Shown here: one piece after another, positions 50 to 44,679 of the stretch
Layout: each line of letters begins with the position of its first letter
Numbering within the stretch: position 1 is the first letter of the stretch
Source: a virus
DNA: 44,729 nt
UHGV virus genome: UHGV-0045723
Direction: 5' to 3' (one strand)
Program-made: the position numbers and the translations under genes
The notes under the pieces: model-generated
What the model was told of the DNA's origin: nothing
What the model saw: the letters and a program-made list of their open reading frames with translations, nothing else
The model's database searches: none

Positions 50-3000
50 ATGACATATCAGGCAATTTTCACTGGCTGGGATGATCTGACGATTGAAGAC
101 CTTCTGGTCGCTTACCGGAAAGCAAAAGCCGATAGCTTCTTTGAGAATACATTTCCTGTTGCTATCAAATTTGCCGAGTATGAGCAGGAATTACTTGAAA
201 ACCTGCAAAAACTCTTAGATCTTTTGCAGAGCGAAGATGGATTCAGTAGCAATAAGAAGTTGATTGGCAAATTTCGTTTGTTACCGAAAAAATTAACCAC
301 AAAGAAAAAACATGAATCCCAAAATGGACACGTCCACTTTTCTAATCCTAAACGAGCAGCCGACCATTTATTTAATAATTTTGATCTGATACCAGAGTTT
401 CGTATTATTGGTGACTTCCCGGTTGATAGTCACATTATCTCTGCACTATGGATTAACATGGTCGGGCATAAATTTGATGCCAGCTTAGATAACTGTTGCT
501 ATGGCGCGCGGCTAAAGCGTATTCGTAATGATGAATTATTTAGCAATGAGCAGGATAATCCATTCCATATCAGTGCCGTGGGTTCTTTTAGCCCCTACTT
601 CCAGCCCTACCAAAAATGGCGTGGTGATGGCTTAAAAGCTATACGTGACGAGTTGGAAAAAGATCGTGACATTATCGCCGCCTCACTGGATTTAAAAAGT
701 TACTATCATTTTATTGATCCACTGGCTATAACCTCTGATGATCTCTATAACACACTAAACATAAAACTGACTGAGGATGAAAAAGCGTTTACTGCACAGT
801 TAGCAGTATTCTTAAAGCACTGGTCTGACGGCGCAGCGGCATTTGGAAAGAAAATAGCGTACAAAACACCTGTTATTAATGGTGGTCTGGTCATTGGATT
901 AACAGCCAGTCGGATCATTTCAAATATATTGCTACACCATTGGGATAAATTAGTCATTGAAAAACTATCACCAATTCACTACGGTCGTTATGTCGATGAT
1001 ATGTTCCTTGTAATACGCGATACAGGGACAATTACTAATAATCACGAATTTATGTTATTGCTGCAAGATAGGCTTGGCAATGATTGCGTTTATTTGAAAA
1101 ACGAGCAAAAACAAATATGGCAAATACAGCAGGGCGAGCATTTCCAGGGTAAGACCACCATCCAGTTACAATCCGATAAGCAAAAACTTTTCGTGCTTCA
1201 AGGGAGGGCTGGAATAGACCTGCTCGACAGTATCGAAAAGGAGATCTACGAGCTTTCTAGTGAACACCGCTTGATGCCTTCACCGGATCAACTGGAACAC
1301 TCCACCGCAGCTAAAGTCCTTTCCGCTGCCGGTAGTGTAGGTGAAAATGCCGATACTCTGCGCCGTGCGGATGGATTAACCATTCGTCGTTTGGGCTGGT
1401 CACTGCAATTACGCTACGTTGAAACACTGGCACGAGATCTGCCTCCAAGTGAATGGAAAGAACAGCGGGAAGAGTTTTATCAGTTTGCCTACAACCATAT
1501 TCTTAGGGCTGATAATCTATTTGCACATTTTAGTTATCTGCCAAGGCTGCTTGGCTTTGCTATCAGTATGAATGAATGGCAGCACGCGGAAAAAATTGTA
1601 CTTAAAGCTTACGAATCCATCAACCTGTTGGCATCGGTGATTACTTCAGGTAAGGAAGTGAATATAAATGGTTGCAAAACTCGAGCAGTAAATGATCTTT
1701 GGCGCTGTATAAAAGGCACATTAAGCTGGCTATTTGTTGATGCAGCGACACGATATTACAGTCCTGACAGATTATTTCTTGATAAACGTTCAAAGAAAGA
1801 AGAGTGCCTTGCGGATACATTTTTTAATCATATTTCACAAAGTCTGACGAATCTAAAGGATTTACTGGATCTTCGCTTTGATTCAGCAGATTTTTATTTA
1901 AAAGCGCCATTGGTAGCTCGAGCTGATTTAGCAAAGGAACCTTATAAACAGATCGTAAAGAGTCAGTCGGCAGAAAAACTTGTTAATCAGCGTGATAGTA
2001 AAAAAGAAGTTAAAATACTGAAATTAATGAGCGACTCATCGCTTATTGATATTGACGTTATTAAGCTATTTTTGAAATCAACCAAGAATACCCGACTGGA
2101 AAAAGTGGCTAAAGGAAATCGTAAAAACGAAAGTTACCTACCTTACATTTTCCCTACACGTCCTTTAACACCCGCTGAAATATCAGAACTGGCCCCCGAA
2201 TGTGTTGGATTACCCTCCACATCCGACAAAAAACCAGATGAGAGACCGTCCACCATTTGGGCAAAATATACTCAAGCATTACGCGGAGTATGGATCAAAC
2301 CGACGTTGCTAGCATCGGAGCAGGACTCAGATGAAGCGACAAAAAAAGCTCGGCCTAAGAAATTCATTCATATTGGCACAGACAGGAAACATAAAGTTGT
2401 CGTTGCGCTAACCAGCATTAAAACAGAGGAGGACGACTGGGCTAAAATGGCCTGCAATAAATCTAACTTGTCCCGTTCAAGGTACCAGCGGATTTCTGAA
2501 CTGGTTAATGCAACATTGAAACTATCTCCTAAACCTGATTATGTTTTATTCCCTGAGCTTTCAATCCCGTTACGCTGGGTTAACAGTATTGCTGATCGTT
2601 TGAGTTCGGCGGGTATCAGTCTAATTGCGGGAACAGAATACCGCCACTTAGACGATAATCAACTGAAGAGTGAGGCCGTACTTGTCCTTTCAGATAACAG
2701 ACTCGGCTATCCAGCGAGTGTCAAAATATGGCAACCCAAGCTGGAACCCGCCGTAGGTGAAGATGAGGCATTATTTTCAACTTATGGTAAGTCTTGGGAT
2801 TCGACACTTAATGTTAAACAACGTAAGCCGGTATATATTCATCACGGCGTCAATTTTGGCGTTATGATTTGCTCTGAACTCCAGAATAGTAAAGCGAGGA
2901 TCCGTTTTCAGGGCGCACTCGATGCATTAATGGTATTGAGCTGGAATAAAGATCTAGATACGTTTGCATCGTTGATTGAATCAGCAGCGCTGGATATTCA

Positions 3001-3259
3001 TGCCTATACTATTTTAGTGAATAACCGAAAATACGGCGATAGTCGCGTACGTTCCCCGGCAAAAGAACCCTTTATGCGTGATATTGCTCGTGTGAAGGGC
3101 GGTGATAATGACTTTGTGGTCGCTGCAACGCTGGATATCGACTCGTTAAGGGCATTTCAGAGCAGGGCAAAACGCTGGCCTAAAGGCGGCGATAAATTCA
3201 AACCGTTACCTGAAGGATTCCAGTTGGCAAAGAACCGCAAAAAGCTACCGCCAAAATAA
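50..3259 (+). CDS. Defence-type (UG/Abi) reverse transcriptase fused to C-terminal nitrilase domain; DRT type 1 (UG1)-like
   Basis: 1069-aa ORF; RT motif C YVDDMF (HYGRYVDDMFLVIRD) in N-terminal half; C-terminal half has nitrilase-superfamily Glu/Lys/Cys context (VLFPELS, KIWQPK, VMICSELQ). Confidence 0.85.
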   Translation: MTYQAIFTGWDDLTIEDLLVAYRKAKADSFFENTFPVAIKFAEYEQELLENLQKLLDLLQSEDGFSSNKKLIGKFRLLPKKLTTKKKHESQNGHVHFSNPKRAADHLFNNFDLIPEFRIIGDFPVDSHIISALWINMVGHKFDASLDNCCYGARLKRIRNDELFSNEQDNPFHISAVGSFSPYFQPYQKWRGDGLKAIRDELEKDRDIIAASLDLKSYYHFIDPLAITSDDLYNTLNIKLTEDEKAFTAQLAVFLKHWSDGAAAFGKKIAYKTPVINGGLVIGLTASRIISNILLHHWDKLVIEKLSPIHYGRYVDDMFLVIRDTGTITNNHEFMLLLQDRLGNDCVYLKNEQKQIWQIQQGEHFQGKTTIQLQSDKQKLFVLQGRAGIDLLDSIEKEIYELSSEHRLMPSPDQLEHSTAAKVLSAAGSVGENADTLRRADGLTIRRLGWSLQLRYVETLARDLPPSEWKEQREEFYQFAYNHILRADNLFAHFSYLPRLLGFAISMNEWQHAEKIVLKAYESINLLASVITSGKEVNINGCKTRAVNDLWRCIKGTLSWLFVDAATRYYSPDRLFLDKRSKKEECLADTFFNHISQSLTNLKDLLDLRFDSADFYLKAPLVARADLAKEPYKQIVKSQSAEKLVNQRDSKKEVKILKLMSDSSLIDIDVIKLFLKSTKNTRLEKVAKGNRKNESYLPYIFPTRPLTPAEISELAPECVGLPSTSDKKPDERPSTIWAKYTQALRGVWIKPTLLASEQDSDEATKKARPKKFIHIGTDRKHKVVVALTSIKTEEDDWAKMACNKSNLSRSRYQRISELVNATLKLSPKPDYVLFPELSIPLRWVNSIADRLSSAGISLIAGTEYRHLDDNQLKSEAVLVLSDNRLGYPASVKIWQPKLEPAVGEDEALFSTYGKSWDSTLNVKQRKPVYIHHGVNFGVMICSELQNSKARIRFQGALDALMVLSWNKDLDTFASLIESAALDIHAYTILVNNRKYGDSRVRSPAKEPFMRDIARVKGGDNDFVVAATLDIDSLRAFQSRAKRWPKGGDKFKPLPEGFQLAKNRKKLPPK

Positions 3260-10118: not shown

Positions 10119-10771
10119 TTACTCCGGATATTTAAAAATTACGTAGGTATGCGACGGGCAGAGTTTGTTAAGCACACACTCGACAACGGTGTCGCCCCAG
10201 ATACGCAGCGCGGAATCACAGGGATCGCCACATGTCATCCAGGTGGTGTTTGTGGCGGCCGGCGGGCTTTTCTCCCCGTCCCTACCCCCCCCCCCCCCCC
10301 CCCCCCCCCCCCGNNNNNNNNNNNNNNNNNNNTTTTGCCCTGCCAGTAATACCGCCATTCCGGCGCATTCACCGCGTCAGTACAGGCCGATGAGCAGGTG
10401 AACGTGCTTTTGTCGTATCGCGTGATGGTAGCGTCTGGTCTGCCCAGGGCAGCAAGCTGTGCAAGATAAAAATTCTCGTTGATGCCGCCCGCCAGGTTAA
10501 CCTTCGCATCCAGCCGTTGCTGACGCTGGCGAAGGGTCTGCGTCCCTGCCGGAATACATTCATCCGGCAGACCGCACAGACGCTCCCAGCGGTTTATCAG
10601 TTCAGTGGTGGTGCGCGGATCCAGCTCCCGCATCAGGGCATCCGCACGCTGATGAACACGGGTTAATGACGGTGCCGCACCGGCAATCGCCGGATCGCTG
10701 GCTGACCACGCCGGACCGGGCGGCAACAGTGCCGATAACAGGCGGATGTAATCATCGTTTGTCACGTCCAT
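10119..10771 (-). CDS. Mu gp48 / YmfQ-like tail protein (frame broken by assembly gap)
   Basis: N-terminus [22 protein letters not shown]...; two ORF pieces (10235-10771, 10119-10358) flank the poly-C/N gap. Confidence 0.55.
10285..10332. other. Assembly gap: 28-nt poly-C followed by 19 N
   Basis: Homopolymer abutting an N-run; disrupts the reading frame of the gene below. Confidence 0.9.
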
Positions 10772-27187: not shown

Positions 27188-27724
27188 TTAGTGGCTTTCT
27201 TCTTCCCCGCCAGGCCAATCAGACGCTGGCGGCTGCTGGGGGCGNNNNNNNNNNNNNNNNNNNNNNNNNNNNNNNNNNNNNNNNNNNNGGCGGCTGCTGG
27301 GGTCGAGTCCGAGCATTGCCCCCGTACTGCTCATCTCGGACTCCTGTTCTTTTTTGGCGGTCAGCTCCGGATTTTTGACCATACCGCCCATTGCACCGGT
27401 GATGGTGTTGCCCTGTCTGGCAATATTTTTCACGGCACGTCGCCAGAACTCGTAGGCCACGCACCACCGTTCAAGCACCGCGAGGTCAGTCACGCACAGC
27501 AGGCCCTGACCGCAGAGTTCTTTGGTTGTCAGTTGCCACATGATCGTGGCGAGAGGGAGATCTTCTTCAGCGAACCACTCCGGTGGCTCAACACCTTTGA
27601 TGGGCGTAAAAACAGGTTCATCTTTATTCAGGGCTCGCTTGCCGGGGTTTCCGGCCAGCGCCTTGCGCGCCGTTGGCTTGGGGCGACGCCCGGAACGCCC
27701 CGCCGTTCCAGCCATATGCGGCAC
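27188..27724 (-). CDS. Terminase small subunit (P27-like), interrupted by gap
   Basis: 178-aa ORF with basic N-terminus MPHMAGTAGRSGRRPKPTARK; immediately upstream of large terminase. Confidence 0.7.
   Translation of the reverse strand: MPHMAGTAGRSGRRPKPTARKALAGNPGKRALNKDEPVFTPIKGVEPPEWFAEEDLPLATIMWQLTTKELCGQGLLCVTDLAVLERWCVAYEFWRRAVKNIARQGNTITGAMGGMVKNPELTAKKEQESEMSSTGAMLGLDPSSRXXXXXXXXXXXXXXXRPQQPPASDWPGGEEESH
27245..27288. other. Assembly gap (44 N) flanked by duplicated ggcggctgctgggg
   Basis: N-run inside the small terminase ORF with the same 14-mer on both sides. Confidence 0.9.
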
Positions 27725-27840
27725 TCCTGGTTAAATTTCATTTTTCGCGGGTATAAAAAAACGATGGGGCGGGCAGTCCGGAAGACGTCAGGCCGCAGGG
27801 ATTTGACCCGCCCCTCCCCTCAGGCAGTTGAGAATCATTA

Positions 27841-28191
27841 TCACTTCAACCGTTCACGGGCCGTCTTCGCCTTATGACACGGCCAGCACAGACTCTGCAG
27901 ATTACAGTCGGCATCAGTGCCGCCATGCGCTTTAGGGATGATGTGGTCAACAGTTTTCGCCTCACGCACCACACCAGCACGCAGACATAGCTGACACAGG
28001 CCTTTGTCACGCTTCAGGACACGCACGCGGATAACATCCCACTTCGAACCATAACCGCGCTGATGACGAGATTGTCCTGGCTTGTATTGCTTCCAGCCTT
28101 CGCTTTTATGGCTTTCGCAATAGCCTGACGGGTCAGTAGTGGTATTGCGGCAACCGCGAACGCGGCAGGCTTTTGGTGTTCGTGGCGGCAT
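27841..28191 (-). CDS. HNH endonuclease (terminase-associated)
   Basis: Cys-rich 116-aa ORF with VDHIIPKAHGG...CWPCHKAK motif. Confidence 0.85.
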   Translation of the reverse strand: MPPRTPKACRVRGCRNTTTDPSGYCESHKSEGWKQYKPGQSRHQRGYGSKWDVIRVRVLKRDKGLCQLCLRAGVVREAKTVDHIIPKAHGGTDADCNLQSLCWPCHKAKTARERLK

Positions 28192-28243
28192 ATCTACTCC
28201 AATGAAAAAGCCACCGGTTGATAACCGATGGCTTTGATTGTTC

Positions 28244-28438
28244 TTACCTGTTTTGAAGAATCTCCCGCTTTCTCACAATACATTCCGTCGTTTCTCTATA
28301 GCTGCACACGTGCTCCCGTGAACATTGGTATGTGTGCAATTCGCCGATGGCATCACCGATACCAGTCAGCACATCTTTTTCATGCAGAATGGTCACCTGC
28401 AGACGGTTGGTTGGGCAGATAATGTTTGAATAGTTCAT
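28244..28438 (-). CDS. Small Cys-containing hypothetical protein
   Basis: 64-aa ORF from ATG at 28438 with AAGGAGA RBS; the ORF track extends it to a TTG at 28615. Confidence 0.4.
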   Translation of the reverse strand: MNYSNIICPTNRLQVTILHEKDVLTGIGDAIGELHTYQCSREHVCSYRETTECIVRKREILQNR

Positions 28439-28612
28439 TTTGGTGTCTCCTTTGCTTTCGAGACACCAAAATCCCATCACGACACGTTTACCGCCACAAA
28501 CATTATTGCAGGCACCCATTGAATACCTGCGGGACTGATAAACACAGCCTCCTCCATACGTAGTGAAACCATTTTCATATCTCCAGTAATGAATTCTTTG
28601 AAGAGTCGCAAT

Positions 28613-28635
28613 CAATACGACTCACTAATGGGGAG
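28613..28635 (+). promoter_or_regulatory. T7 RNA polymerase promoter-like sequence
   Basis: caatacgactcactaatggggag: 14 contiguous matches to TAATACGACTCACTATAGGGAGA. Confidence 0.5.
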
Positions 28636-28669
28636 GCATGTCCAACGCGTTGGACGAGTTGCCTACTTG

Positions 28670-28690
28670 ATTTAGGTGACACTTTAGAAG
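28670..28690 (+). promoter_or_regulatory. SP6 RNA polymerase promoter-like sequence
   Basis: atttaggtgacactttagaag: one mismatch to ATTTAGGTGACACTATAGAAG. Confidence 0.5.
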
Positions 28691-28808
28691 GACAGAATGC
28701 CTTCCTCACTCAAATAACATCAATTAAGGAGGTTCAACATGCTTCGTTCCAAAAGTCAGTTGACTGTAATTATTACTACGTCACCTTATGCCGAAGACCT
28801 TTTCCGCT

Positions 28809-29084
28809 TCACTTTGAGCCTGATTCACTTCTACCTGACCGGCTCGCCTCTATCCTTCTGATCCCCGCTTTATCCAGATTGCACTGCCCTAGCGCCGACA
28901 ACAGACTGACATTCAAATCTAGGCTACCCGCATAAGTCAGCGGTTCAGAAATGGCTGGTTGCGGGGTTTCAGCGGTCAGACTCGCCGGTAACGGTATAGC
29001 CGGAACTGGCACGTAAACTGTCCGCGAACTTTCGCAACCGGTCAGCAGCGGCAGCAGGCACAGGGCGTACAGCACAATCATCAT
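28809..29084 (-). CDS. Rz1-like o-spanin lipoprotein (overlapping Rz)
   Basis: Alternate frame within and beyond Rz; lipobox LLTGC after a hydrophobic signal; Pro-rich. Confidence 0.55.
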   Translation of the reverse strand: MMIVLYALCLLPLLTGCESSRTVYVPVPAIPLPASLTAETPQPAISEPLTYAGSLDLNVSLLSALGQCNLDKAGIRRIEASRSGRSESGSK

Positions 29085-29361
29085 CCGCAACAGCCACTTT
29101 GATATCAGCCTGGGTTCTCTGTGACTCCAGTGCGATCTGCTGTTTTGCATGCTGGTTAGCCTCCAGAACTGTATTGACGATTTGCAGTGATTGCAGGACG
29201 TTATTGGTAATAGCGGTTGCCGATTCGGCATTTTGTACAGCCTCATCAGCACGTTTCTTTTCGCGCTGGTATTTGCTGTGGTAGTGGTTAGCTGACCAGA
29301 CGAGAGAACCGAATAAAGTCAGGAGGAAAGCAGAAATAACCAGCTTATAGCGAAGTTTCAT
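28969..29361 (-). CDS. Rz-like i-spanin
   Basis: N-terminal TM helix LVISAFLLTLFGSLVW then coiled-coil; directly after endolysin. Confidence 0.75.
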   Translation of the reverse strand: MKLRYKLVISAFLLTLFGSLVWSANHYHSKYQREKKRADEAVQNAESATAITNNVLQSLQIVNTVLEANQHAKQQIALESQRTQADIKVAVADDDCAVRPVPAAAADRLRKFADSLRASSGYTVTGESDR

Positions 29362-29821
29362 TAACCACCCCGCCAGCTTCTTTGAATTTGGCAATCAGAC
29401 TATCGATCTTGTGTTCATACTGACCGTAGCCAGCACCGGGCAATGAAGCCCAAATATTGCTGCAACGATCAATAGCCTGACGAATATCACCCCGATCAAT
29501 CAGCGGCAGCGCGCCGCGTTCTTTAATCTGCTGTAACGCCACCGCATCCTGGCTTTTCGGGGAGAAATCTTTCAGTCCAAGCTGTTTACGGTAGGCGTCC
29601 CACCATTTCGACAGCAGTTGATAACGCCCGGCGGCGGTGGATTTCAGTTTCGGGTTAAGCGTAACCAGCTTACGTGGATGATCGGAGTAATCAGTAAGCA
29701 GTTCGCCACCAACGATAACGTCATAACCATGATTTCTGGTCTTCTGCCATCCGTTATCAGTTCCTTCTGACCACGCCAACATATCGAGAAAAGCTTTACG
29801 CTGGGAATTTAGTACCTGCAT
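29345..29821 (-). CDS. R: Endolysin, lambda R-like
   Basis: 158-aa ORF nearly collinear with lambda R as I recall it (NSQRKAFLDMLAWSEGTDNG...HGYDVIVGGEL...). Confidence 0.9.
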   Translation of the reverse strand: MQVLNSQRKAFLDMLAWSEGTDNGWQKTRNHGYDVIVGGELLTDYSDHPRKLVTLNPKLKSTAAGRYQLLSKWWDAYRKQLGLKDFSPKSQDAVALQQIKERGALPLIDRGDIRQAIDRCSNIWASLPGAGYGQYEHKIDSLIAKFKEAGGVVNETSL

Positions 29822-30442: not shown

Positions 30443-31618
30443 ATGGATATAACTTGTTTAGAATGTGGCAATGTTCTTGACGACCCAACTGTAGCTTGCG
30501 ATAAATGCGGTGCCACGCCTCATGTTGTAGTGCTGGGCAAACAATCGTACTTTCCTATTGGTGCTGTAACAGCAAATCTTGAAAAAAATGATTCAAGAGC
30601 ATTTGATTATCGATTAGGTGAAGTTTGGGATCTAAAAAATGAAGTCACATCTGAATTCATAACCAGAATTGAGAAAAAATTTAGCCGAAAAAACAAATTT
30701 CATAACTTCCTAGACTCAGATCACAACCCTTCATCCATTCCTACGATCCTAAAAAAATACATTAATAAAAATAATGAATTCATTGATTTATCTAGAGCTA
30801 TAATAGAGAAGCTTAAACATAATGCTAATAACGAATCGAGAGTTGCCCAACTTCAGGGGGGGAGCGTTGTTTTCATCCACTATAAGTCTACCGAACCAGA
30901 GGATTTGGGGAAACTTCTAATCGTAATGGTTGATAAACAAAGCGCCTATGACTTTGATTCGGATAAGTTGACCCCAACAAGATTAAATCCAATTAATACC
31001 GATGCCTTACGGCAGGCTGCGATGTTCGATTTAACTTTATTCGAAGCCAGTTATCCAGAAAACAAGGGTGACTCATATGTACATTTCTTGCAAGGTAAAT
31101 CTAAAAGCGATTTTTTCAAAGACTCATTAGGTTGCCGACATGATTCGGACAATAAAAGAAGCATTCAGCAATTATTCAGTGCTATAGATATTTTTGCTAG
31201 TAAAAACTCACTCGGTCGTGTACTGCGTGATACTATTGACAATGAAGTTAAATCCTTACTGGAAAAAAAATCAAAAGATAAACACGGAAATAAGTCCGTT
31301 AAGATAGAGGATATTTCAAAAATAATTGACTCATGCCTGACTGATTCACACAAATGTAAGGGAACGTTTGTCGATTTTGTTAATCTTAATGGTTTCCAGA
31401 TTGACCCTCAATTTGAACCAACTCCTAAAGCAGCTGAAAGCGCGCTTACAATTGAAGTGGCAGATAACGACAATAATTTTAAGTTGAAAATAATGCGTGG
31501 AGCTATTGGAGACGAAAAGTCAAATAAGCCTGTAATTCTCACTGACAACAAATGCGAAATTGTGATAAAATTGAGTCAGGCAAATTATGATGAACTCAAA
31601 AGATATAGAGACAGCTAA
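30443..31618 (+). CDS. Zinc-ribbon protein with NdpA/YejK-like (NA37) nucleoid-associated domain; candidate defence gene A
   Basis: 391-aa ORF in AT-rich DNA; N-terminal CLECG-x12-CDKCG; central GGSVVFIHY, LLIVMVDK, YVHFLQGKSKSDFFKDSLG resemble E. coli YejK as I remember it. Confidence 0.7.
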   Translation: MDITCLECGNVLDDPTVACDKCGATPHVVVLGKQSYFPIGAVTANLEKNDSRAFDYRLGEVWDLKNEVTSEFITRIEKKFSRKNKFHNFLDSDHNPSSIPTILKKYINKNNEFIDLSRAIIEKLKHNANNESRVAQLQGGSVVFIHYKSTEPEDLGKLLIVMVDKQSAYDFDSDKLTPTRLNPINTDALRQAAMFDLTLFEASYPENKGDSYVHFLQGKSKSDFFKDSLGCRHDSDNKRSIQQLFSAIDIFASKNSLGRVLRDTIDNEVKSLLEKKSKDKHGNKSVKIEDISKIIDSCLTDSHKCKGTFVDFVNLNGFQIDPQFEPTPKAAESALTIEVADNDNNFKLKIMRGAIGDEKSNKPVILTDNKCEIVIKLSQANYDELKRYRDS

Positions 31619-31620
31619 TA

Positions 31621-32835
31621 ATGACAATTGCTGATGACTTATCAAGATTAGCGCAGATTATTAACGGAGCCTCAAGCAGAGTTGAGGGCTACTACACTGT
31701 CATAAGTCTTGAAGAAAGCATTGTTATTGTAAATAGTTCTGAAATAATTAGACTGTTACAATCTATAGGTTATAAAAAGGCAACAACCTGCATCGAAAAT
31801 AATGAAATTTGGCTAGATCGCCAAGCTTCATCTTGGGATGACGCTATAATTTATGAGAATGTTGAGTCTTTTTGGTCTAGAGTAAACACCCAAAACGCTC
31901 TTCCGAAAAATTATATCATCGGAACGCCGTTAATACTCCCTACTTCTAAGAATGAAAGCATCGAAAAAATCCATATTTTCTTTATGTGGAAAGATATCCT
32001 TTCATTAATTGCTGATCATCATAACAGTGACTGCTCTGTCTTATTTTTCACCAATGAAGACAAAAGTTATACAGTCGAACTCACGCATTTTTTACAATAT
32101 AGCGAGATTAATCGCTTATCGAACTCGTCTCTTAAATATGAAATTATAAAGGAGCTTCTCGACACAATAAAAATCAATGATTTACACAAAAGCGAGCGCA
32201 AGCTCGTTATACGCTCAGCCATAAACGAAGTATTTAAAGCAAATGGTACGTTCAATTTCTTTGACTTGCTTAACTCTACTGAACTCGTCAGGAAAAAATA
32301 TGATGAACTATATGAGATTTACACAAAGAGGTTTTCTGTAAATAAAATTCTTAACGAACTCGATGAGAAAAATCTTGAGTTCACGAGTAAAATTAACGAA
32401 TTCATATCATCTAATCAGACAAAAGCATTGACTATTCCCGGTGCATTAATAGCAGCTGGTGGCTTAGTGAAGGCTAATGAAACAACCGAAGCAATATTGA
32501 TTATCGCAGGACTTTGGATGATAAAAAAAGTCAATTACATTTCTATTGAGATATTCAATGAAACATTCGACAACTTACGTTCTCGAGTGGAGTCCGCTTT
32601 CGATAAGTATTTAAAGTTTGAAGAAAATAAAGAAATCAAAGATAATGCAGATAGTATTAAGAGTAGCATTACAGGTTTGATTGATAAAGCTAAAAAAAGG
32701 ATGAGAACTGTTAAATATCTCGCATCAGCCATGTTTTATGGAGGCCTTATTTACGTTGGATATAAACAGTTCCCAGTCTTTTTTGAAAAATCGGCAGTAA
32801 ATCTATTTTATTTTTTATGCCATACTATAAGCTAA
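31621..32835 (+). CDS. Membrane protein with helical N-terminal domain; candidate defence gene B
   Basis: 404-aa ORF starting 2 nt after gene A stop; hydrophobic helices ALTIPGALIAAGGLV...ILIIAGLWMI and YLASAMFYGGLIYVGY. Confidence 0.7.
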   Translation: MTIADDLSRLAQIINGASSRVEGYYTVISLEESIVIVNSSEIIRLLQSIGYKKATTCIENNEIWLDRQASSWDDAIIYENVESFWSRVNTQNALPKNYIIGTPLILPTSKNESIEKIHIFFMWKDILSLIADHHNSDCSVLFFTNEDKSYTVELTHFLQYSEINRLSNSSLKYEIIKELLDTIKINDLHKSERKLVIRSAINEVFKANGTFNFFDLLNSTELVRKKYDELYEIYTKRFSVNKILNELDEKNLEFTSKINEFISSNQTKALTIPGALIAAGGLVKANETTEAILIIAGLWMIKKVNYISIEIFNETFDNLRSRVESAFDKYLKFEENKEIKDNADSIKSSITGLIDKAKKRMRTVKYLASAMFYGGLIYVGYKQFPVFFEKSAVNLFYFLCHTIS

Positions 32836-43289: not shown

Positions 43290-43639
43290 TGGAGCCATAC
43301 AGCCTCACACTCGATGAGGCCTGTCATTTTCTCAAGATATCCAGACCGACTGCCATTAACTGGATACGCACAGGGCGTCTTCAGGCAACACGCAAAGATC
43401 CCACTAAGAATAAATCTCCTTACCTCACAACACGACAAGCCTGCATTGCGGCTCTTCAGTCTCCGCTGCATACTGTCCAGGTGAGCGCGGGTGATGGCAT
43501 AACAGAGGAAAGAAAATGTCACTCTTCCGCAGAGGTGAAATATGGTACGCCAGTTTCACATTGCCGAACGGTAAAAGATTTAAACAGTCTCTTGGAACAA
43601 AGGACAAAAGGCAGGCGACAGAACTCCATGACAAGCTAA
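43289..43639 (+). CDS. Excisionase-like HTH protein
   Basis: N-terminal [31 protein letters not shown]; directly upstream of and overlapping int; 3' end uncertain. Confidence 0.5.
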
Positions 43640-44679
43640 AGGCTGAAGCATGGCGGGTCAGCAAACTTGGTGAAATACCTGATATAACGTTCGAGGAAGC
43701 GTGTGTCAGGTGGCTTGAAGAGAAAGCACATAAAAAATCACTGGACGATGACAAAAGCCGGATCGGATTCTGGCTTCAACATTTCGCAGGAATGCAACTA
43801 AGAGACATTACTGAATCAAAAATTTATTCAGCAATGCAGAAAATGACGAACCGGCGTCATGAGGAAAACTGGAAACTCAGGGCAGAAGCATGCAGAAAAA
43901 AAGGGAAACCTGTTCCAGAATACACGCCAAAACCAGCGTCCGTTGCAACGAAGGCTACGCATCTTTCATTTATAAAGGCCCTACTAAGAGCCGCAGAGCG
44001 TGAATGGAAAATGCTGGATAAGGCACCAATTATTAAAGTGCCTCAACCAAAGAATAAACGGATCCGCTGGCTGGAGCCTCATGAAGCACAAAGGCTGATT
44101 GATGAATGTCCGGAGCCATTAAAGTCTGTTGTTGAATTTGCACTGGCAACAGGCTTAAGACGCTCGAACATCATCAACCTTGAATGGCAACAAATAGATA
44201 TGCAGCGCCGGGTGGCATGGATAAACCCGGAAGAGAGTAAATCAAACCGCGCAATTGGCGTTGCGCTGAATGATACTGCATGTCGCGTATTGAAAAAACA
44301 AATCGGGAATCATCACCGTTGGGTATTTGTGTACAAGGAAAGCTGTACCAAACCAGACGGAACGAAAGCGCCAACAGTCAGGAAGATGCGGTATGACGCA
44401 AACACAGCCTGGAAAGCGGCGCTGAGACGAGCTGGTATTGATGATTTCAGATTTCATGACTTGAGACACACCTGGGCAAGTTGGCTGGTTCAAGCCGGTG
44501 TCCCGTTGTCAGTGTTACAGGAAATGGGAGGCTGGGAGTCTATCGAAATGGTTCGTCGATATGCTCACCTCGCACCTAATCACCTTACCGAACACGCACG
44601 GCAAATAGACTCGATCCTGAACCCATCGGTCCCAAATTTGTCCCAGTCAAAAAATAAGGAAGGTACTAATGATGTGTAA
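43516..44679 (+). CDS. int: Tyrosine integrase
   Basis: 387-aa ORF with C-terminal [40 protein letters not shown]; ends 14 nt from the tRNA. Confidence 0.9.

Follow-up and report, generated by a model that had tools for sequence, protein, structure and literature searches.

The viral genome UHGV-0045723 comprises 44,729 nucleotides (this whole stretch is designated the window below) and represents an HK97/SfIV-like prophage with its late genes on the minus strand. Between Rz1, the last lysis gene, and the HNH-terminase module, it contains a cassette of ~320 bp (28541-28861) that is read from the plus strand. This cassette is a natural moron-like unit with two tandem promoters for RNA polymerases which the prophage itself has no gene for. 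A promoter of the T7 group is followed by a hairpin, a promoter of the SP6 type, a leader and an open reading frame (ORF) of 40 codons with a consensus Shine-Dalgarno (SD) sequence. The chances are about even that the cassette is switched on by the polymerase of an invading phage and that the small peptide would confer abortive infection or exclusion. The observations behind this proposal are the natural origin of the cassette, the identity of its promoters, its conservation, covariation in the hairpin and the lack, in the window, of a cognate polymerase gene and, in a consensus scan, of a sigma-70 site.

Two tandem promoters for phage RNA polymerases

Box 1 (CAATACGACTCACTAATGGGGAG, 28613-28635, plus strand) is a T7-group promoter of the Berlinvirus type. 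It extends from -17 to +6 and has a predicted start at G 28630. An earlier note, made from the DNA sequence alone, had described this box as T7-like, and the run of 14 nt in common with T7 (AATACGACTCACTA) is real. The canonical T7 consensus is, however, the wrong reference, and the Berlinvirus group fits. With 3 mismatches allowed, the T7 class III consensus TAATACGACTCACTATAGGGAGA did not match at box 1, which differs from it at -17, -2, -1 and +4 to +6 and has the same specificity region (-12 to -8). Berlinvirus promoters (Kvp1, BA14, 285P, PYPS50) read ...ACTCACTAATGGGAGA. As this group is the right reference, the apparent mismatches at -2 and -1 vanish. Box 1 agrees at every position from -17 to +3 with the annotated promoter phi1.1 of Kluyvera phage Kvp1, whose promoters have been described (PMC2579914). 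The consensus of the 14 annotated Kvp1 promoters is (T/C)AATACGACTCACTA(A/T)TGGGAGA. For scoring, position weight matrices (PWMs) were built from each phage's own promoters, which were themselves scored leave-one-out. On the Kvp1 PWM, box 1 reaches 34.9 bits compared to 21.6-35.7 bits for the promoters of Kvp1 itself (median 33.9), and the next site in the window has 6.7 bits. The 18-mer AATACRACTCRCTAATGG is present in multiple copies per genome in T7-like phages of 39-40 kb, among them Yersinia phage PYPS50, Escherichia phage 285P, Kvp1 and relatives. The majority version of box 1 among the relatives of the cassette carries an A at -11 and corresponds, together with the ATC upstream of it, to a promoter of PYPS50/285P-type phages.

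Box 2 (ATTTAGGTGACACTTTAGAAGGA, 28670-28692, plus strand) is an SP6-type promoter, again from -17 to +6, with a predicted start at G 28687. The SP6-like box that had been noticed earlier (ATTTAGGTGACACTTTAGAAG, 28670-28690, plus strand) was found as described: It agrees with the SP6 consensus ATTTAGGTGACACTATAGAAG at 20 of 21 positions, the sole mismatch being a change from A to T at -3. On the SP6 matrix, which is based on 11 promoters, box 2 scores 31.4 bits (median of SP6's own promoters 32.5; next site in the window 11.9). Neither the -3T version of the window nor the E-type version ATTTAATGGACACTATAGAG has an exact counterpart in the IMG/VR phage genomes. The commonest box 2 among the relatives, ATTTACTGGACACTATAGAAGGA, is identical in 23 of 23 positions to two K1-5 promoters. 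It reaches 36.8 bits with the K1-5 matrix and occurs in multiple same-strand copies in the 44-45 kb genomes of the K1-5/K1E/AAPEc6 group (Vectrevirus). It differs from the SP6-type box of the window mainly at -12 to -10, where the variation of box 2 is concentrated. In this promoter family, positions -12 to -10 set the specificity of the polymerase.

Both boxes lie within 80 bp and point in the same direction, with their predicted starts 57 nt apart. In 100 dinucleotide-preserving shuffles of the window, neither box was matched (0 matches each). Because of this result and the gap between the PWM scores of the boxes and those of the next best sites, an origin by chance is excluded. Variants were collected from ~95 IMG/VR loci with 16 versions of the promoter region, and the variability of each part was determined on 40 distinct sequences. 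Variable positions account for 4 of 23 in box 1 (17%), 5 of 33 in the leader (15%) and 2 of 16 in the SD-ATG region (12%), compared to 40% in the left arm, 58% in the hairpin and 38% in the first half of the ORF. The two boxes are almost certainly natural, selected copies of phage-polymerase promoters.

At one IMG/VR locus (AACGATGATCTGGCAGCC...), an unrelated sequence replaces box 1 and the left hairpin arm, and box 2, SD sequence and ORF are intact. The junction falls inside the hairpin loop. Since box 1 is swapped and box 2 kept at this locus, the boxes seem to be exchangeable as separate modules.

As stated in the earlier note, a cognate single-subunit RNA polymerase is not encoded in the window: Pfam gave no hit for the largest ORF (1,069 aa), and the others are too small. 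This largest ORF (50-3259, plus strand), for which no Pfam family was found at E values up to 1e-5, lies close to the left end, beyond the phage structural genes identified in the window. A consensus scan, the only search made for host promoters, did not reveal a sigma-70-like promoter upstream of the 40-codon ORF, neither in the window nor in the majority E. coli variant.

The cassette is widespread in natural isolates

The vicinity of T7-like and SP6-like sequences had led to the suggestion that the segment is vector DNA, the result of a chimeric assembly or derived from an engineered strain; as a second option, an unusual natural element had been named. A 341-bp query covering the segment matched 627 RefSeq records, 626 of them complete E. 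coli genomes, with 80-100% identity. In 12 records the identity was at least 99% and in 605 it was 80-90%. The matching isolates originate from humans, cattle, poultry, deer, swan and wastewater. A shorter query of 146 nt confined to the promoter region was found in 628 of 5,426 complete E. coli genomes including the ST131 strain EC958. The HNH gene is present in 1,109 of those genomes, which means that ~57% of the HNH modules carry the cassette. Shigella phage SfIV, which was sequenced independently, contains the segment with 97.7% identity, and several induced E. coli phages carry it as well. RefSeq has no annotated feature under the promoter-leader part of the match.

This distribution in natural isolates refutes a vector origin, and the artefact reading falls with it, while the idea of a natural element is supported. 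An origin from cloning vectors, misassembly or genetic engineering has a vanishingly small probability, even though three motifs of pGEM-type vectors are found within 130 bp and the window contains two runs of N. It has to be set against the 626 complete genomes and the temperate phage, across which the sequence varies coherently between 80 and 100% identity. A search of a plasmid collection yielded three natural E. coli plasmids only and no vector-like plasmid. Furthermore, in vectors the promoters face each other across the polylinker, whereas those of the cassette are arranged in tandem. The mismatches of box 1 to T7 are exact matches to Berlinvirus promoters, and the palindrome that resembles a polylinker varies with compensation among relatives (see below). 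The two runs of N comprise 19 bases (10314-10332) and 44 bases (27245-27288, within the gene for the small terminase). Both reflect gaps or masking of the source record and have nothing to do with the cassette.

A hairpin maintained by compensatory changes

The palindrome TCCAACGCGTTGGA is located, as previously reported, at 28641-28654 on the plus strand. It is the core of a hairpin followed by a T-rich tail (28630-28668, plus strand) that starts at the predicted +1 of the box 1 transcript. In the predicted RNA, folding yields a stem of 13-15 bp. Over 14 distinct variants, 95.7% of the stem cells are paired, and sliding the stem partners by 1-3 columns cuts pairing to 40-56%. Two stem pairs exhibit a compensatory double change, C-G to U-A and A-U to C-G. 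The stem includes several G.U pairs, and since these can pair only in the plus-strand RNA, this strand is favoured. In four of five variants, the plus-strand RNA folds better than the minus-strand RNA by 2.4-4.8 kcal/mol. The MluI site, which had been taken for part of a vector polylinker, is the hairpin tip and confined to the hairpin variant of this window; relatives read TCCAACACGTTGGA, TCTCACACGTGAGA or TCTCACGCATGAGA at this place.

In the majority variant, the hairpin and its T-rich tail score as an intrinsic terminator on the plus strand. As it is terminator-like and located at the start of the transcript, it may insulate the ORF from host read-through and/or stabilize the 5' end. From its sequence, it could be an insulator-terminator, a 5' stabilizer or both. 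The leader of the box 2 transcript (28687-28725, plus strand) contains a candidate 5' stem formed by GAAGG (28687-28691) and CCTTC (28700-28704). This stem is kept through G.U pairs in the variants GGAGG and GAGGG, which is weak evidence. Rfam yielded nothing in 27700-29400, even at E values up to 1, and was the only search made for an antisense RNA antitoxin.

The terminator score and the position inside the late transcription unit would suit a simpler view: The palindrome and its flanks might be ordinary late-operon signals, i.e. a terminator, a processing site or a protein-binding site, and their likeness to promoters incidental. This view is very improbable. Two independent 23-nt matches at 31-35 bits are not incidental, and both the terminator-like orientation and the G.U pairs point to the plus strand, opposite to the late operon.

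The 40-codon ORF

The translation signals comprise a consensus SD sequence, a spacer and an ATG (28726-28741, plus strand). AAGGAGG at 28726-28732 and the ATG at 28739 had been correctly recognized; the spacer between them has 6 nt and not 7 nt as had been counted. The ORF of 40 codons that starts here was likewise borne out (28739-28861, plus strand). It encodes the peptide MLRSKSQLTVIITTSPYAEDLFRFTLSLIHFYLTGSPLSF, and its last 17 codons are antisense to the 3' end of Rz1. The length is exactly 40 codons in 95 of 95 loci, among which 18 protein variants occur. As the Rz1 stop codon marks the boundary of homology with Klebsiella and Edwardsiella, codons 1-23 belong to the cassette and codons 24-40 run through the Rz1 tail.

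Within codons 24-40, 6 of 9 variable sites are at third positions of the ORF, which are second positions of Rz1 (binomial p about 0.04, with small counts). In the overlapping part, the two main haplotypes differ at three sites, all of them synonymous with respect to the ORF. Such a distribution of changes is consistent with selection that acts on the small ORF and not on Rz1. Conservation of the C-terminal part due to Rz1 was considered and rejected, since the variable sites fall on Rz1 second positions. Altogether, conservation gives signs that the ORF is translated.

Neither the 40-aa peptide nor the Klebsiella peptides described below belong to a family in Pfam, PHROGs, NCBIfam or PADLOC. 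The exact 40-aa peptide is found on 854 public contigs and is named 'hypothetical' each time. Homologues of the ORF were not found in any Autographiviridae record; tblastn matches were obtained in temperate phages only. Capture of the ORF from a lytic phage was also considered and discarded: An alignment with a Berlinvirus promoter plus gene is homologous only over the promoter and a generic SD sequence.

An insertion between lysis and packaging genes

The 3' part of the o-spanin gene Rz1 (lysC; 28809-28997 according to the ORF call, upper end approximate, minus strand) directly adjoins the cassette and overlaps it. RM10466 and SfIV have lysC or Rz1 annotated at the corresponding position. The left arm of the cassette (28541-28612, plus strand) lies between the HNH start and box 1 and is, according to the alignment, common to all cassette-bearing loci. 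In Edwardsiella hoshinae, the end of Rz1 is only ~50 nt away from the HNH start. This identifies the cassette as a discrete insertion. Its GC content is 44% compared to 50% for the window. Insertion between conserved genes, absence from relatives and low GC content are marks of a moron.

The HNH neighbour is retained in 77 of ~88 E. coli loci, whereas the opposite flank swaps between SfIV-type lysis genes, lambda-type lysis genes with bor, an IS element and antirepressor-like genes. The cassette travels with the HNH/terminase module. Among 68 species-level genomes of other genera with an HNH homologue, none has the cassette beside it. By this result, the possibility that the cassette is a general companion of this HNH module was ruled out.

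In S. flexneri SFBU0723 (locus positions 1875-2500), a different AT-rich insert occupies the cassette site and encodes a protein on the late-operon strand. Due to this second insert, the Rz1-HNH junction can be regarded as a hot spot for cargo.

An analogous cassette in Klebsiella phages

Temperate Klebsiella phages (Kp4864-1, for example, and at least about a dozen IMG/VR contigs) contain an independent, analogous cassette that abuts the Rz1 stop codon. It begins with a T7-like box (ATTAAGACTCACTATTAGGAAGG) and the same hairpin as in E. coli (GGCTTGTCCAACACGTTGGACA). The second promoter is of the KP34 type and reads TAATGTTACACGAGTAGG or TAATGTTACCGGAGTAGG, i.e. TAATGTTAC(AC/CC)GAGTAGG. It is followed by a further box, TAAGTTACACAA(T/G)AGAA, and a strong SD sequence. 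The payload is one of three unrelated ORFs of 37-38 aa whose best 19-residue hydropathy is 1.8-2.3. The strong promoter of the KP34 polymerase has been determined experimentally as TAATGTTACAGGAGTA (PMC6834552). The CCGG variant of the KP34-type box was found in KP34-like genomes of 42-44 kb. The third box (TAAGTTACACAAKAGAA) looks SP6-like; in IMG/VR it was found in cassettes only, with no multi-copy match in a phage. Thus, the design recurs with different parts: Promoters for several unrelated podophage polymerases precede a tiny hydrophobic gene. In Kp4864-1 (locus positions 380-640), and also at loci L246-L252, a perfect 10+10 palindrome (TTGTCTCTTATAAGAGACAA) is located upstream of the T7-like box.

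The recurrence bears on the question if the boxes might be functionless recombination relics from T7-like and SP6-like phages that spread passively with the terminase module. Identities over 21-23 nt, including the flanking ATC before box 1, look copied and not convergent, and the N-terminal half of the ORF is unconstrained, as would be expected for relics. Nevertheless, this explanation is quite improbable. Conservation is highest in box 1, leader and SD-ATG, compared to 38-58% variable positions in the rest of the cassette, and compensatory changes maintain the pairing of the hairpin. Different variants match different real phage groups. The Klebsiella version joins promoters of at least two unrelated polymerase lineages upstream of unrelated small hydrophobic ORFs, and the E. 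coli ORF is without a homologue in the Autographiviridae records.

Proposed mode of action

As there is neither a sigma-70 promoter nor a cognate polymerase, the cassette is expected to be silent until a Berlinvirus/T7-like or SP6/K1-5-like phage infects. When a lytic podophage infects the lysogen, its own early-made polymerase would start transcription at ~28630 and ~28687. Transcripts with 5' hairpins and a consensus ribosome-binding site would then yield a burst of the 40-residue peptide in infected cells only. The peptide is probably membrane-active, by analogy with the hydrophobic Klebsiella peptides of 37-38 residues. Its action on the membrane would either kill or incapacitate the cell or stop the invader, in each case ahead of progeny formation. 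The outcome would be abortive infection or exclusion, by which sibling lysogens would be protected. Since an infected lysogen is lost anyway, this would be the most likely benefit. A more general version, to which slightly less than even odds can be assigned, posits a modular DNA-only infection sensor in temperate phages of E. coli, Shigella and Klebsiella: An array of lytic-podophage promoters (T7-like, SP6-like, KP34-like), swapped to suit the local predators, would drive the synthesis of a membrane-active peptide.

Several points weigh against such a role. Firing of the promoters in infection, the peptide as effector and defence as the outcome are inferred from sequence. Host DNA is degraded in infections by T7-like phages, and the response from only one copy on the chromosome may come too late. 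Transcripts from box 1 could end at the hairpin and its T-rich tail without reaching the ORF, and the -3T, seen in no IMG/VR phage promoter, may weaken box 2. In 43% of the HNH-bearing genomes the cassette is missing. The ORF overlaps Rz1 in antisense and could partly share the conservation of this gene, and its N-terminal half displays no purifying selection (pN/pS about 2, with small counts). The best 19-residue Kyte-Doolittle window of the E. coli peptide is 0.9-1.4 and, hence, below the value of 1.6 usual for a membrane helix. A 2023 library of defence proteins, both known and candidate, gave no match.

Alternatively, the prophage might use the polymerase of the invader for its own ends in the style of a satellite or hitchhiker, i.e. 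to express downstream plus-strand genes, to prime a replication origin by transcription or to produce antisense RNA over the lysis genes. The T7 primary origin consists of tandem phage promoters followed by AT-rich DNA, and the cassette with its tandem promoters and subsequent AT-richer DNA resembles it. In addition, two genes, one for an NA37-family protein and one for a 404-aa protein, are located 1.6 kb downstream in the same orientation. However, the downstream content changes completely between contexts, and SD-ATG plus small ORF is the only constant payload. The cycle of a prophage is too long for a T7-type latent period. Use of the invader's polymerase for such purposes is therefore unlikely, although less so than a passive spread of relics, and expression of the peptide as a response to infection is preferred.

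Comparison with known systems

The two boxes share the 23-nt architecture and the sequence of promoters of Autographiviridae, i.e. Berlinvirus, Zindervirus (SP6), Vectrevirus (K1-5/K1E) and Drulisvirus (KP34). Like in late genes of these phages, a 5' stem-loop and a strong SD sequence come after each box. In contrast to Autographiviridae, they are found in a temperate prophage that lacks such a polymerase, and promoters for mutually specific polymerase lineages are arranged in tandem upstream of one gene. We know of no lytic phage that places promoters of different lineages in tandem before a single gene.

Tandem T7-like promoters without a polymerase gene have reportedly been seen before: Chen and Schneider are said to have described in 2006 two to three of them in prophage-like islands of enteric pathogens. 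These islands reportedly comprise 4-13 kb, with promoters spread over 150-620 bp and facing 2-5 phage-related genes; the promoters are said to form 12 clusters. Dependence on a helper phage is said to have been proposed, which would accord with the satellite-like use considered above. The window is similar in that two tandem promoters are located in a prophage with no polymerase gene in 44.7 kb. It differs by the position of both promoters within 80 bp, by the full 40-kb prophage and by the single ORF of 40 codons. The mechanism proposed here for the cassette should be easy to test. A review links the 2006 paper by Chen and Schneider (Nucleic Acids Res 2006;34:1133) to a sit-associated island. 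The sit-bearing prophage of CFT073, used as a proxy for this paper, has no sequence similarity to the cassette, so that a link to this island was ruled out. In CFT073 (NC_004431.1), the icd-inserted lambdoid prophage with sitABCD carries a single T7-like core, TAATTTTGCTCACTATAGGTACT, at ~45150-45185 (locus coordinates, minus strand). It is located immediately upstream of the sitA start codon and is possibly one of the 2006 promoter clusters. In the literature searched, neither a functional study nor a mixed T7/SP6/KP34 array upstream of a small peptide gene was found.

Like the lambdoid morons bor and lom, the cassette is a small unit between two late genes, absent from close relatives and of lower GC content. 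Classical morons are transcribed from sigma-70 promoters of the host while the prophage is repressed, whereas a promoter of host type was not detected in the cassette by the consensus scan. In its size of 37-40 aa, the payload resembles type I toxins; it is clearly hydrophobic in the Klebsiella versions, and in E. coli the values are those given above. In contrast to type I toxins, the cassette peptides match no NCBIfam toxin family, and the proposed trigger is the polymerase of the invader instead of the loss of an antitoxin. With abortive-infection systems the cassette would share the logic of death or arrest, but sensing of a phage protein is not proposed. In Lactococcus, Djordjevic et al. 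are said to have engineered a phage-triggered suicide cassette in 1997, and Studier's T7 system reportedly established the principle of pET/T7 expression. In these systems, too, a silent gene has a phage-specific trigger; the cassette is natural and combines several polymerase specificities. Satellites of the P4 type are a further parallel. The late promoters of P4 are activated by Ogr of P2, and for the cassette, too, it is proposed that a resident element answers the transcription machinery of an incoming phage. In contrast to P4-type satellites, the window lacks genes for capsid size, replication and redirection of packaging, and the carrier is a complete temperate phage.

Neighbouring genes

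The lysis genes upstream of Rz1 on the minus strand encode a holin (30151-29825) and a lysozyme (29821-29345), which are followed by Rz and Rz1. On the other side of the cassette, the HNH endonuclease (28191-27841, minus strand; Pfam HNH, 5e-15) forms a packaging module with the P27-family small terminase and the subsequent large terminase (27163-25430, minus strand). The integrase gene is located at 43516-44679.

Between the cassette and HNH, a gene for 64 aa (MNYSNIICPTNRLQ..., 28244-28438, minus strand) has its own ribosome-binding site, AAGGAGA. Its sole match is phrog_31491 (unknown function), and hairpins are found at ~28432-28470 and ~28508-28530. As only 5 of ~88 related loci contain this gene, it is regarded as a second, rarer moron. 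A plus-strand unit of two genes opposite to the late operon is located just upstream of the holin gene. The first one (30443-31618) encodes an NA37 (YejK-like) nucleoid-associated protein with an N-terminal zinc-ribbon-like CxxC pair, and a PADLOC scan was negative. The second one (31621-32835) encodes the 404-aa protein without a Pfam hit. At the same spot, SfIV and RM10466 have different plus-strand genes.

Perspectives

Natural E. coli DNA can hold promoter sequences of the T7 and SP6 type, which is of importance for contamination screens. About 1 in 9 complete E. coli genomes contains the cassette, which is also widely distributed in Klebsiella pneumoniae and is invisible to current annotation. 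Because it is common, it could affect how well phage therapy with T7-, SP6- and KP34-like phages works; these belong to the therapeutic phages used most. Known anti-phage systems sense an infection by proteins that bind phage molecules or register damage. If the proposed role is true, a promoter as the only sensor would be a different and very economical principle: Retargeting would require no more than the exchange of ~23 bp, and the natural variants look like exactly that.

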